Of a stretch of 64,000 nt of DNA, positions 8,370 to 49,578 are shown one piece after another. The DNA comes from a virus. Its lineage: Duplodnaviria; Caudoviricetes. The notes below the pieces were generated by a model. It was not told where the DNA came from, made no database searches, and saw only the letters and a list, made by a program, of their open reading frames with translations. How positions within the stretch are numbered: position 1 is the first letter of the stretch; the number at the start of each line of letters is the position of its first letter. A program made the position numbers and the translations under genes. The DNA lies in the IMG/VR virus record IMGVR_UViG_3300035208_002115. The stretch is one strand, 5' to 3'.

Positions 8370-8385
8370 TTTTATAAAAAATTAG

Positions 8386-8458
8386 CGAGCCAGACAGGAC
8401 TCGAACCTGCGACCAATGAATTTAAAGTCCATTGCTCTACCAACTGAGCTACTGGTTC
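8386..8458 (-). tRNA. tRNA with UUA anticodon (ochre suppressor), tRNA-Lys-like body, no encoded CCA
   Basis: GAACCAG TA GCTC AGTTGGTA GAGC A ATGGA CT-TTA-AA TTCAT TGGTC GCAGG TTCGAGT CCTGT CTGGCTC G; full cloverleaf with one A3.C70 mismatch; anticodon at 8425-8423. Confidence 0.92.
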
Positions 8459-32855: not shown

Positions 32856-35800
32856 TTAAGAAACTCTAAATATTTCTAAAGAACAATCTCTTATATTTAA
32901 TGTACCAGTAGCTTCTTGGGAAAACTCTAATGTTATTGTATGTGTAACAGTTGTACTGAAAGTTATAAACATAGTTCTTGTTGTATAAAGCCAAGTAGTA
33001 GTATCCGATAATTCATGATTATGAACATTACCCAACATTGTACCATCAACTCGAATTCTTGATAATATATCACTGCTAGTGATATTTTTATTCATACCAT
33101 AACTTCCAGTTATTTTATATAATCCAATCGGTAATACACCAGTTGTAATAGTTAATTTAGTTGAATATGTTGGTGTTACTGATGTTGTAGTAGTTTGTGT
33201 TAAATCTTGTGCATAATTAAATTGACTACCATAAATAGTCGGTTGAATTTTAGTATTTATTATTTTTTTATTATTATCGATTGATAATAAAGTATATCCG
33301 CTATATGACGGTGGTACATAAGTACTTGGAGTATTTGATAAATAAATAGCAAATCCACCTGTTTTAGATACAAGAACAAAATCACCACCTATTTTATTAA
33401 CCCAATAATCACCATTAAAATTTGCAATACCAACACCAGTGAAGGTTAAGGCTGGACTTGTTTGGTTAAATGTTTGTGTTGTATTTGGTAATAAATCAAC
33501 ATAATATGATGGTATACCATCATTTGTATTGAAAGAAAATGTATATAATCCATTATTTGTTAAATTCCAGTTTATAGTCCAATAAGCTAAATTTGTTAAA
33601 TCTGGGCCGTCTGTCCCTGTTACTGTGATATAATAATATGTAGTGTTTGTTGTTGGTATAGCGGTTGGTGCTGGTGTATTATAAGTGTATGTACTTTGTA
33701 CTATTCCTGTTATACCACTTAAAAAAGTAGAACCACTTATACCCAGATTATTATATAAATTTGTTGACCCAGTGACTTTTAATGTACCAATTACAGCTTC
33801 ATTTCCTAAAATATTCGAACTATTAGCCGTTAATGAATTACTTATGATTGTAACACCATTTACTGTTAAAGTATTATATAAGTTTGTAGCACCAGTAACT
33901 TTTAATGTACCAGTTACAGTTTCATTACCTGAAACATTTATACTATTAGCTGTTAATGTGTTATTTATTATTGTAGCACCATTTATTGTTAAAGTATTAT
34001 ATAAGTTTGTAGCACCAGTAACTTTTAATGTACCAGTTATAGTTTCATTACCTAAAATACTCGAACTATTAGCTGTTAATGTGTTATTTATAACAGTTGC
34101 ACCGTTTATAGTTAAAGTGGAATTTAAATTTGTTGCCCCAGTAACTTTTAACGTACCAGTTACAGTTTCATTTCCCAATATATTCGAACTATTAGCTGTT
34201 AATGTGTTATTTATTATTGTAGCACCATTTATTGTTAAAGTAGAATTTAAATTTGTTGCCCCAGTGACTTTTAACGTACCAGTTATAGTTTCATTTCCCA
34301 ATAATGTTATACCACTTAGAGTTAAATTTTTTTGCATTATAATGTTACCAGTAGAATCAATTCGCATTTTTTCATCTGCTGCTGTTGTACCATTTGTAAA
34401 AAATTTCAAAATTTTAGTTGGAGTGGAAGTTCCTATTGCTAAATGACCACCATTAGCTATTAAATATGAATCATCACCATCAACAATTGAATAACTTGGG
34501 TCATTATAGGTAGAAGAATTTATACCTAAATCTACATACATATCGGTTTCGCTTCCGTTATCTGCTGTTGCTACAATATCAGAAGAAGCATAATTACCAT
34601 TGCTACTATTATGGATATTTAATTGAATATAGGTATCTGCATCTGCATATGCACTTATTATATTTTTCGATTCAGTATAACTTTGAACAAGAAAACGTTC
34701 AGGATTTAATACATCAAATATAGGATTACCAATGGCTACATTACCACCACCAGTTGCTAAGTATACATTATCAGACGAATATGTATTAATTTCAAATGTA
34801 CCACCAGTGCTATCTAAATATAGAGAATTATTTCCATTATCACCACCAGAAATTATACTTGATGCACCTATTTGTGTGTGTATGATAAGTCTATCTGTTG
34901 TTAAATTAATAGAATTTGTATTAATATTACCTACATGATAAATCGTATTATTACCAACTGCATCTAAGTAGGTTTTGTTTGTATGTGTGTGGGTATTTGT
35001 ATAAGCAGAATCCCAATTAGTTTTATTATAACCACTGATAGATGTTGTACCACTGAAGAAACTATCAATATTTGTTTTTAAATAATAGGATGTAAACCCA
35101 TTATATGATGTTAAATTTGATATATCAGTTGATGTGTGAGTATGTGCTGAATTAGCTTTTAATAACAAATTATCATCAACATATTTCTTATCTATTAAAT
35201 CAGTATTTGATGTAAATGTTGGGTGACTATTGTATTTTTGAATACCAGTTATATTTCTTGTTCCGTCAGTTTTAAGATATTGTAAATGGTCATCTGAATC
35301 TAAACCACTTAATGAACTGTGTTTAGTAATACTCCCCCCACCAGAACCAGTTTGTCCACCAATACGATAATGAAAAGGTAAAGGTCTAATATCATATATA
35401 GAATCTGAAAAAGATGTTGTACCCCCTGAGTAAACTATATAGGCCATGTTTATTGTCGTAGTATCAAATGGTGCTATTTTAGCAGGTAATCCAGCATTAA
35501 TAGCATCTTCTTTAGATTCATAATAAGCCTGTGCTAAATAAAATGATAACTGACCCTGTGCTGTTCTTAATATCAACGATTTTACCCATTTTCCAGAAGG
35601 TATTTTCACCATTGAAAAATTGGCAATACAGGTCAAATCAATTCCACCTGTACCTAAGTACGGAGAATCTAAACTTATTATAGTTTGCGAACCTGTCCAT
35701 GTAATACCAGTGGCTAAGACCTCATTAATATATGACGTTGTATATCCATCTTCATATGCATAAATTTTAAAGAAATCATCTGATGGAAATTGATTTGTTA

Positions 35801-45541: not shown

Positions 45542-46752
45542 TGGGGAATATTTATGTGTTTGCAAAATTATCAATAGATAATAAATCTTATACTGGTGCA
45601 GCTATCGGTTATTCTAATGACTTAGGACTAACAGAAAGAAATGCAATAAAAAATTTGTTAAGTAAAATGAGAAGAAAGGGAGATAATATATGACAGACAG
45701 GATAAAAGGTTTCGTGGTAACTTTGGATAAAGATATCCGAATTGATGATGTTCAACCAATAATGGATGCCATCAAAATGATAAAGGGTGTGATTGATGTA
45801 TCTCCCAGTGTTGCCGATTCAGACGACCACATGAATCGTGAACGTGTTGCACATGAGTTTCGCTCTAAATTCTGGAATTTTATGAATAATGAATTAAAAT
45901 AATGAATCCAGAAACAAGATATCTAATTTTCGAGAATGGTATTTATTTCGGGTATCCACTTTGTTGTATAAAAGAATTTATAAAAGATATTGAAGAAGGT
46001 GGTGAAGCACCATCTAAAAGAGTTAGAAACATTAAAGGAATTGATGGTTCTTTTTGCCCTTGTAGAAAACACACACAGGAAATAGAAGAAGGTAAGATAA
46101 CGCAAGAAGATTTAATTGATGGTAGAGTTTGTCCACATCCATTTCCGATAAGAAACGAAAATGATATTATTGAATCAAAATAATTCATGAAAGAAAATAA
46201 AAAATATATTTTTGAAGTCGATTTTTCTAATATATTTCCTATATTCCACACTTTCAGACTTATCTATGATATTAAAAATTTTTTAAAATTTTGTCATTTT
46301 TTAATATGTTATAAAAATACACCAGTTAAAGGGTTTGAGGGACGGTGCATAAATTGTGCTATTAAGGATACATATTGTGGTAAATTGGATATAGTAAGAT
46401 GTCCAAATAGGTTTGACCGTCATTATGAATTAAGATACTTATTTAAATGGATAAAAAAATTATCATAAAAAATTATATATTGTATTTATCTGAAATATCT
46501 GAATTTTTATCAATCGATAATAAAAAGAAGGTGGCAGATAAAATTAATACTATAAATAATAGTGACTGGACTGTTGAAAAATTGGGTAAACATGATACAT
46601 TAGTACCAATTAGACTTCAGCTTTTTTTGCTTTATCAAGAAATGGAAGTTATGTTTACAATAGAAAATATTAATGAAAAAATAATATGGTTGAAAGATTA
46701 TGAAATTCAATATATTAGAAAATTAAAAATTAATGATATTTTATCAGAGTGA
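45541..46752 (+). CDS. Five small hypothetical proteins (45541-45693, 45690-45902, 45902-46183, 46187-46468, 46447-46752)
   Basis: Overlapping starts/stops; GYPLCCI..FCPC..H in 45902; 46447 ends YIRKLKINDIL. Confidence 0.55.
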
Positions 46753-46774
46753 TAAAGAATATATATTTGTAATT

Positions 46775-46980
46775 AATTAAACACAGAGGAATCATCGCTC
46801 TACGGAGAGGAAATTCTGGACACATGGGGAGAACGCAGAAGGACTAATAAACCGCTATACTGCATAAGAGTGTGCAACGAAAATTGAACTTGGGTCTTGT
46901 TTCCCACCTATAAGTTCTGGTTTCGGCCTTTAGACAAATGATGATATAAAACGGAATCCAGATTACGCTCATGTTTAATT
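46775..46980 (+). ncRNA. rnpB: Minimal RNase P RNA (rnpB-like)
   Basis: P4 halves GAGGAAATTCTGGAC (46807) and ACGGAATCCAGATTA (46951); P1 AATTAAACA/TGTTTAATT; P2 ATCATC/AAATGATGAT; P3 CTC-TACG-GAG; P5, P6, P15/16 pairings; TATATTTG promoter at 46762. Confidence 0.85.
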
Positions 46981-47039
46981 CTAATTTTTTTTATATTTAA
47001 AATGTTTTTATTTTTGTATAATAAACATTTTTAATCATT

Positions 47040-47785
47040 ATGAATGATAATTTTTTAAAGGCACTTGTAAATATTATCAATACTATGGTTGATATGCGGT
47101 CTCATTTATCTAAACCAGAAATAGTTGGTATGTTTTATAAAGACACCAAAGATATTGTCATATATGATGAATTCATGAAAGAATCTAATCTCATTGTAAA
47201 CCATCTGATGAATATCAAATTGGATATTGAGCTAAATCCACATATGAATGATATGATAAATAATCTTTTATTTTCTAATCAGATTTTAATGGTCAAACCT
47301 GATATAATTATACACATTAATGACAGTTTAAAAAGAGACAATAATAAGGAAAAATGGTTGTCTTTTTTCAGATTGATATTAAGTAATAAAAGAACACCAA
47401 ATAAACAAAAAGAATGACAATAGAAATAGGTAATAAAAGTTTTTCGGATTTAACAGCCGATGATATCAAACAAATTATTTTGATAGAAGGTTGTTCGCCA
47501 GTCCCTGAACATTGGAGCGAACCTGTCATAATGGATTTCAACAACACTATGTTCAGTGATACTGTTGTTGCTGATTTTGTGAGTTATAGAAAATCCGATA
47601 ATATGAAAAGTTGCGAATATACCTTTTTCTTCAATTTTAAGGATTTTCATATTCATTACGTGAGGGATTTGTATGTGAGAGATTTGGAAAAAAACAACCC
47701 AGTCTATCGACCGAAGGGGAAGTCCATAAAGTTGGAGACCCTTAAATATCTGATTAAACAAGGCTTTGATGTACCTATTTATTGA
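47040..47785 (+). CDS. Two hypothetical proteins (47040-47417, 47414-47785)
   Basis: ORF track; promoter TATTTTTG 47009-47016. Confidence 0.55.
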
Positions 47786-47807
47786 TTTAAAAATCAAAAA
47801 ATACAAT

Positions 47808-48966: not shown

Positions 48967-49578
48967 ATGAAAACATTTATTCTTAAACTAAAATTATTTT
49001 TCCTTCTTACTATTGTTATTTTTTTTAAAAAAATAAATCGTTCTTATAATAAAAATTTTCAAGTGACTGCACTTGAAGATGGTAAGAAGTATTGGATTTC
49101 AAGAAGCGTAGCTGTTGACGCTATGATTTTTATTTATAACCGTCTCGACAGAAAATATTATGTTTTGATGGTTAAACGTGGTAAGGGAGTTAGTTATAGT
49201 GGTTATTATTCGTTGCCGTGTGGTTTCATGGATTTTAATGAGAATGGGTTGCAAGCATTGATGAGAGAACTCTGGGAAGAAACCAATCTAAAATTAGCAG
49301 ACTTACTGAAATTCGAAATCTCAGCTAAGTATATTGATATTCCATATTTCGTAAACACCGAACCATTAAAAATTGATAATCAAAATGTGTCATTATATTA
49401 TGGTTTGGTTTTGGTTGTAAATTCATTACCATCAGTGTCAAATATTAATTGTGAACCAAATGAAATAGATGAAGTAAAATGGGTCGAGATATTTGAAGAA
49501 CTTCCAAAGCTGAGTAAGATTGCTTTTAATCACGAAAGACGTGTTGAAGACTTTTGTAAATTAAATAACATTGGGTGA
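48967..49578 (+). CDS. Nudix hydrolase (ADP-ribose pyrophosphatase-like)
   Basis: SVAVD...LPCGFMDFNENGLQALMRELWEETNL...IAFNH. Confidence 0.85.
   Translation: MKTFILKLKLFFLLTIVIFFKKINRSYNKNFQVTALEDGKKYWISRSVAVDAMIFIYNRLDRKYYVLMVKRGKGVSYSGYYSLPCGFMDFNENGLQALMRELWEETNLKLADLLKFEISAKYIDIPYFVNTEPLKIDNQNVSLYYGLVLVVNSLPSVSNINCEPNEIDEVKWVEIFEELPKLSKIAFNHERRVEDFCKLNNIG

Follow-up and report, generated by a model that had tools for sequence, protein, structure and literature searches.

We found that a 206-nucleotide stretch of a large phage genome, at positions 46775-46980 (+) of the 64,000-nucleotide piece of DNA that was analysed (the window), is, on the strength of its sequence, almost certainly homologous to the RNA of RNase P, the RNA enzyme that trims new tRNAs and one of the few universal ribozymes. 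The window comprises bases 29370-93369 of the virus record, a phage of 675,678 bp. We take the stretch to be a real gene for a 206-nucleotide RNase P RNA of bacterial class-A ancestry, one of a family of RNAs of about 190-235 nucleotides in large phages, and consider it probable that this RNA acts catalytically on phage pre-tRNAs. With slightly less confidence, we favour the broader reading that large phages carry their own bacterial-type, catalytic-domain-only RNase P, which would mature phage tRNAs with host RnpA or with no protein and would be encoded here by an independently transcribed accessory gene.

A sequence-only reading of this DNA had described an RNA of about 206 nucleotides with P1, P2, a 3-bp P3, P4, P5, P6, P15-P16 and a GGU, and a check of the pairs by script found all of these elements present and every helix named there to consist of standard pairs (47 of 47 pairs in the whole RNA). 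The gene is bounded at both ends by P1, a helix of 9 + 3 bp (46775-46783/46972-46980 and 46786-46788/46968-46970), which encloses P2 (AUCAUC/GAUGAU, 46791-46796/46940-46945) and P3, a minimal 3-bp hairpin with a cUACGg loop (46798-46807). The ability to form P4, which had been named as a check on this reading, came out in its favour, AAU.CUGGA pairing with UCCAGAUU (46812-46820/46957-46964) in 8 standard pairs, with U46815 bulged out. They are followed by P5 (46821-46824/46871-46874), by P6, a 7-bp pseudoknot of UGGGGAG with UUUCCCA (46825-46831/46900-46906), and by P15 (46878-46881/46922-46925) and P16 (46886-46891/46912-46917). The proposed layout of helices needed a single correction, in that P2 and P4 cross and P4 is a pseudoknot, as it is in all RNase P RNAs. 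As had been claimed, the specificity domain is nearly deleted: in its place, between P6 and the 3' strand of P5, there are only 40 nucleotides (46831-46870; about 39 had been counted) with one 4-bp stem, GCAG/CUGC (46835-46838/46860-46863), closing a loop of 21 nucleotides. The absence of P18 was likewise borne out, only 14 nucleotides lying at its position between P15 and P2.

To compare the joining regions with those of a known enzyme, E. coli rnpB (M1 RNA) was taken from the annotated genome; the unpaired signature bases occupy equivalent positions in both RNAs. J3/4 together with the 5' strand of P4 (CR-I, 46807-46820) reads GAGGAAAUUCUGGA in the window RNA and GAGGAAAGUCCGGG in E. coli. 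Across the 3' strand of P5, J5/15 and P15, the window RNA has UGUG-CAA-CGAA where E. coli has GGAG-CAA-GGCC, so that the CAA of J5/15 (46875-46877), which in the E. coli RNA is the site of A248, is matched. The loop beside P15 is UGGU in the window RNA and GGGUA in E. coli; its GGU (46919-46921), which stands in the P15-P16 internal loop, is presumably the element that pairs with the tRNA 3' end. The joiner before P2, J15/2 (46931-46940), which is equivalent to J18/2 (CR-IV), reads UAGACAAAUG against UAGAUGAAUG in E. coli, and J2/4 with the 3' strand of P4 (CR-V, 46949-46967) reads AAACGGAA-UCCAGAUU-ACG against GACAGAA-CCCGGCUU-AUC (ACGGAA-UCCAGAUU-A against ACAGAA-CCCGGCUU-A). Within P4 itself, three pairs differ from their E. 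coli counterparts in both bases, with U-A in place of G-C, U-A in place of C-G and A-U in place of G-C. The window RNA hence carries P4 with its bulged U between the bases of CR-I (GAGGAAA) and CR-V (ACnGAA...UUA) at 46807-46820/46949-46965, together with the substrate-contact elements of the C-domain, namely the CAA of J5/15, the GGU loop and the A-rich CR-IV joiner, and it is devoid of the specificity domain (P7-P14, CR-II and CR-III) and of P18. Folding of the single sequence was no better than that of shuffles (z = 0.01); the minimum-energy fold recovered 18 of the 39 nested pairs, and the nested RNase P structure had -22.8 kcal/mol versus -40.5 for the minimum.

A covariance-model match to Rfam RNase P, which the sequence-only reading had put forward as a check, did not appear for the window copy, even at E<=10. 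At Rfam gathering scores the window gave no RNase P match, the curated cut-offs being 84 bits for RF00373 and 100 bits for RF00010, neither of which was reached by the window RNA; a scan of a 551-nucleotide slice against all Rfam families at E<=10, RF02357 included, and a search of the whole 675-kb genome with RF00010 gave no RNase P match either. Nor did BLAST of the RNA find a match in the GenBank phage collection, a window-specific pattern scan found nothing in metagenome contigs, and a protein search with the ORF downstream of the RNA returned the same phage only. Scanning IMG/VR for an exact 15-mer yielded 117 matches, all at chance level, which were dropped. We do not count the lack of an Rfam match as a refutation, because relatives of the window RNA do match RNase P models, as described below.

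Relatives were collected by a pattern scan of IMG/VR for three conserved joiners at the spacing of a miniature RNase P, which returned 35 loci. With the window sequence as its only input, a covariance model matched 27 of these, 24 of them at full length, with 16-62 bits and E values down to 5e-14, and the RNAs of the 27 matched relatives are 190-235 nucleotides long. A profile HMM (nhmmer) was then made from the 27 relatives with the window left out, and it found a single match in the genome (1.35 Mb searched), at 46777-46979 of the window, with 96.7 bits and an E value of 1.8e-28. This match to a profile built without the query is full length, covering profile positions 3-212 of 213, and at such an E value the site lies far beyond chance. 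Over 153 well-aligned columns the window RNA is 53-71% identical to the relatives, which average 61.5% among themselves, and its branch length is typical for the family; by these measures it is an ordinary family member rather than an outlier.

When eleven of the relatives were searched against Rfam with relaxed thresholds, nine of them matched RF00010 or RF00373 along the entire model, with 25-72 bits and E values down to 3e-22; RF00373 is the archaeal RNase P model, in one clan with RF00010. The scores were 72.1 bits for L138 (E 3e-22), 67.2 for L146, 67.1 for L161, 63.8 for L163, 63.5 for L151, 61.3 for L136, 52.5-61 for L135, 47.2 for L169 and 25.3 for L162. The best model was RF00373 for L136, L169 and L162 and RF00010 for the rest of the matching relatives, which scored 52-72 bits on it over model positions 1 to 367. 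The Rfam alignments of the relatives skip the S-domain block and P18, passing over about 140 model positions. For L141 and L152, which are A+T-rich, no Rfam RNase P match was obtained, as was the case for the window. Since the scores of the relatives all lie under the curated cut-offs, routine annotation misses these genes.

In the family alignment, from which the window was left out, 90.5% of the pair cells were paired and 42 of the 47 pairs had changed on both sides among the relatives, so that the covariation across phage homologues which had been proposed as a check was found. The covariation score was 0.64; shuffles gave 0.157, and slid partners no more than 0.097. All 12 pairs of P1 covary, with 95.4% of cells paired, as do the four pairs of P5 (99%) and all pairs of P15 (82.1%) and P16 (82.6%), while P3 is 98.3% paired and its hairpin is equally short in several relatives. 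The six pairs of P2 have all changed on both sides and are about 80% paired, and P4, for which covariation had been claimed, is 92.3% paired with five of its eight pairs covarying. The support for P2 (80%) and P4 (92%) does not come from fitting, because the alignment model did not hold the true pairs of these two helices and carried wrong ones instead. The stem of the S-domain remnant is 96.2% paired, three of its four pairs covary, and it occurs as GCAG/CUGC, GAAG/CUUC, GUGG/CCAC, UUGG/CCAA, GUAG/CUAC and ACAG/CUGU; its loop holds a motif, ACUAAUAA..CGCUAUA, common to the window RNA and the relatives. In 17 of 20 relatives a duplex of 5-8 bp forms in the same two places as the P6 of the window RNA, mostly UUGCUUA/UGAGCAA with compensated variants, and the P6 of the window RNA differs from that of the family on both strands with complementarity kept. 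The helices shared with the family, the remnant stem and P6 among them, are hence maintained by compensatory change. The GGU beside P15 is invariant; the conservation of the J15/2 motif among the relatives is by construction, since this motif was partly in the search pattern. Taken together, homology, covariation and the matches of the relatives to RF00010 and RF00373 support the identity that the sequence-only reading had assigned, that of a miniature RNase P RNA of bacterial type, devoid of the S-domain and P18.

Of the 45 columns that are conserved in at least 90% of the relatives, about half of them fixed by the search pattern and the remainder independent of it, the window RNA matches 44. 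The sole departure is G46953, which is A in all the others. Its 47 pairs are all intact; 12 of them differ on both sides from the commonest pair of the family, and one differs on one side. Intact and compensated pairs of this kind are a mark of selection for the fold and not of decay.

The RNA gene lies in an ORF-free gap of 287 nucleotides (46753-47039) amid tightly packed genes on the + strand, and the G+C content is 0.36-0.45 at this gap versus about 0.25 on both flanks. A minus-strand ORF of 42 amino acids (46844-46972) overlaps the gene; the covariation in the family supports an RNA that would be read from the + strand at 46775-46980. Logan SRR6484787 and JGI 3300037067, two further assemblies, hold an identical RNA sequence, with 0 differences; they therefore exclude an assembly artefact and, for the same reason, contribute no covariation. 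Upstream, a TATATTTG box (46762-46769, +), read from the sequence 6 nucleotides before P1, may on weak evidence be a Bacteroidota-type -7 promoter element. The TANNTTTG motif (TAnnTTTG box) occurs 110 times in the window where 125 are expected and shows no enrichment, no sigma-70-like site upstream of the gene is better placed than the TATATTTG box, and an upstream stretch of 18 nucleotides that resembles a promoter recurs in the genome no more often than in shuffles. A run of eight T (46984-46991, +), 4 nucleotides after P1, is a candidate transcript end; a standard intrinsic terminator was sought after the gene and none was found. The putative transcription signals around the RNA gene are thus weak.

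The neighbourhood consists of small ORFs of unassigned function between a nicotinate phosphoribosyltransferase gene (PF17767/PF04095, 44291-45541) and a Nudix hydrolase gene (48967-49578), and ORFs near the RNA gene read normally under table 11. Elsewhere in the window, at positions 33749-34295, a unit of 123 nucleotides is repeated in tandem 4.4 times with 87% matches, and TAAATTTG/TAAGTTTG recurs in it every 123 nucleotides. The closest relative of the phage (G001, IMGVR_UViG_3300037067_007156), a complete genome of 640 kb that is about 80% identical in the flanking genes, is missing the whole 2.1-kb stretch equivalent to 45678-47800 of the window, and no copy of the RNase P RNA was found elsewhere in it by BLAST (best E 0.128, chance level), by the window model or by RF00010. 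Weak matches of the window model in this genome and in that of the phage itself (E 0.2-0.3) had no RNase P motifs and were rejected. At the syntenic place (L122:5185-5420), the closest relative has three to four direct repeats of 36 nucleotides (GGTGAGTGAGCATTTCAAAATACAGGTAGTCACAAC) spaced by 66 nucleotides, the first of which overlaps the end of a 107-amino-acid ORF; this looks like a CRISPR-like mini-array. Since the closest relative is without the gene, the RNA gene lies in a variable island and is accessory and dispensable for the lineage.

Its loss or absence in so close a relative, its place in a variable island between conserved genes, and the A-to-G change at 46953 are what would be expected of a non-functional relic, that is, of a horizontally acquired copy that is unused and heading for loss. 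We regard this as very improbable, because none of the 47 pairs is broken although 12 have changed on both sides, P6 has been re-coded on both strands, the conserved columns are kept but for one, the branch length is typical for the family, and the G+C content stands well above that of the flanks.

We then considered the relation of the RNA to tRNA genes. The 675-kb genome has 40 of them, 39 in three dense arrays (131509-140981, 605885-608458 and 641904-647053 of the phage genome) with spacers of 1-13 nucleotides, and one lone suppressor, which at a distance of 38 kb is the tRNA nearest to the RNA gene; the first array is 55 kb off. This suppressor tRNA, with the anticodon UUA reading UAA, is at 8385-8458 (-) and reaches 68.3 bits with the tRNA model; the window contains no other tRNA. 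Several tRNA genes, among them those for Met, Pro, Gln and Trp, are 85-91 nucleotides long, which suggests extra arms or introns. In the relatives, the fetched locus has tRNA genes in 21 of 27 cases, all but one on the strand of the RNA, and none in the other 6; the RNA lies within 100 nucleotides of a tRNA in 11 of the 27, often at 3-9 nucleotides. A site inside or beside a same-strand tRNA array, which is typical of the family but not universal, is therefore absent for the window RNA, and its gene stands by itself in an accessory island, apart from any tRNA array. As to other RNAs in the tRNA arrays that carry the miniature RNase P in relatives, those of L169 (3688-3790), L151 (1850-1948), L136 (426-1037) and L135 (6-363) showed sub-threshold matches to YrlA (Y RNA-like) of 36-41 bits; the same arrays also contain tmRNA genes, and the tmRNA of L136 has a group I intron beside it.

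The separation of the window copy from tRNA genes raises the possibility that the RNA is an active ribozyme whose main substrates are others, such as the precursor of tmRNA, RNAs of the host, or parts of phage or host mRNAs that are folded like a tRNA. We think this unlikely, given that linkage to tRNA arrays is family-wide, that the GGU pairing with the tRNA 3' end is invariant and that no alternative substrate was identified, even though an enzyme without an S-domain should take hairpin-like substrates more freely and the C-domain is able to cleave model hairpins (PMC5839562). The same lines of evidence lead us to prefer, as the more probable reading, a catalytic role of the window RNA on phage pre-tRNAs.

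No homologue of RnpA (PF00825) was found in the phage genome, and the RNA would need host RnpA, or no protein, because the phage encodes none. This absence also fits an RNA that sequesters the RnpA of the host or takes the place of the host's own RNase P RNA and in this way throttles or re-programmes host tRNA maturation, as do the stand-alone position of the gene among early-type metabolic genes far from tRNAs and the lack of the S-domain that gives full efficiency (PMC5839562). A decoy or competitor of this sort, however, needs no catalytic or substrate-contact bases, whereas the bulged U, the A-rich joiners, the CAA and the GGU are kept in the window RNA and throughout the family; moreover, most relatives lie within same-strand tRNA arrays, as befits an enzyme made together with its substrates. 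We therefore hold this explanation to be improbable, if somewhat less so than the other two. In sum, the conserved substrate-contact bases, the linkage of the family to tRNA genes and the compensated fold argue against a decoy, against other targets and against a relic.

As we picture the enzymatic reading, an RNA that has retained the catalytic domain whole (P1-P6, P15-P16, the bulged U of P4, the CR-I and CR-V bases, CAA, GGU and the A-rich joiner), with the specificity domain swapped for a 40-nucleotide hairpin and P18 gone, would fold into a catalytic core. This core would bind the host RnpA protein, or act alone, and would cut the 5' leaders off the 40 pre-tRNAs that the phage itself encodes, with no recognition of the tRNA elbow. 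Of the 40 tRNA genes, 35 do not encode CCA and 5 do, and for the 35 the conserved GGU could therefore pair only once CCA has been added. A protein of the CCA-adding-enzyme family is encoded by the phage: a PF01743 (PolyA_pol) match of 112 bits at 398507-398896 (-) of the genome (locus L174) falls within an open frame of 843 amino acids, and the phage may thus add CCA to its own tRNAs. The absence of an RnpA gene, the tRNA spacers of 1-13 nucleotides and the CCA-adding-enzyme family protein are compatible with the ideas that the sequence-only reading had offered, namely use of host RnpA, relaxed specificity, or an RnpA sponge.

If the enzymatic reading is true, no active RNase P from a virus would precede this one, and nature would have supplied a minimal ribozyme from which it can be seen what RNase P does without an S-domain. 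A bacterial-type RNase P RNA of about 200 nucleotides in large phages would add a ribozyme to the translation-related functions of these phages, would help explain how their densely packed tRNA arrays are processed, and would offer a natural minimal scaffold for studying C-domain catalysis and substrate choice. It would also mean that an entire class of RNase P genes goes unseen under the curated thresholds, and the window copy indicates that such a gene can be a stand-alone accessory unit, diverged beyond every Rfam RNase P model. A full-text search of the literature turned up no description of a phage RNase P RNA or of this family. The sole viral precedent found is the RNase P-like RNA of orthopoxviruses, which is inactive in vitro (PMC3001073), and one study notes tRNAs and a tmRNA as all that Rfam detected in megaphages (PMC8172020).

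Compared with known RNase P RNAs, the window RNA is alike to the E. coli class A RNA (RF00010) in the order and pairing of P1-P6, P15 and P16 and in the bulged U of P4, but it has 206 nucleotides versus 377, its P3 is cut to 3 bp, P18 is absent, and a 40-nucleotide hairpin stands where E. coli has its S-domain (P7-P14, CR-II and CR-III). RNase P RNAs below the Rfam thresholds that lack P12, P13, P14 or P18 have been described in CPR bacteria and Mycoplasma fermentans (PMC8172020); these keep the S-domain core P7-P11, whereas the phage RNA does not. In the literature searchable here, natural forms without the specificity domain are described for one archaeal family only. This archaeal type T RNA (Thermoproteaceae, RF02357; PMC3579882) is, like the window RNA, natural, about 200 nucleotides long and short of most of the S-domain, and it is missed by general RNase P models (PMC3579882). 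Type T, however, belongs to an archaeal lineage and works with several archaeal proteins, while the phage RNAs have the bacterial P15-P16 GGU loop and their best matches are to RF00010; the window RNA itself gave no RF02357 match at E<=10 and has the bacterial P15-P16 with its GGU, and so is not a member of type T. The two look like independent reductions. A further parallel comes from the Eco CP RPR constructs (Mao et al. 2018, PMC5839562), which like the phage RNA consist of the catalytic domain only and which established that the E. coli C-domain alone is catalytic, needing a P6-like pairing but not P18. The features that these constructs need or spare are those that the phage family keeps (P6) or drops (P18), which by analogy fits an active catalytic-domain-only enzyme. 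The Eco CP RPR molecules are laboratory deletions of reduced efficiency, whereas the phage RNAs are natural genes under selection, with a conserved 4-bp stem and loop in the place of the specificity domain.
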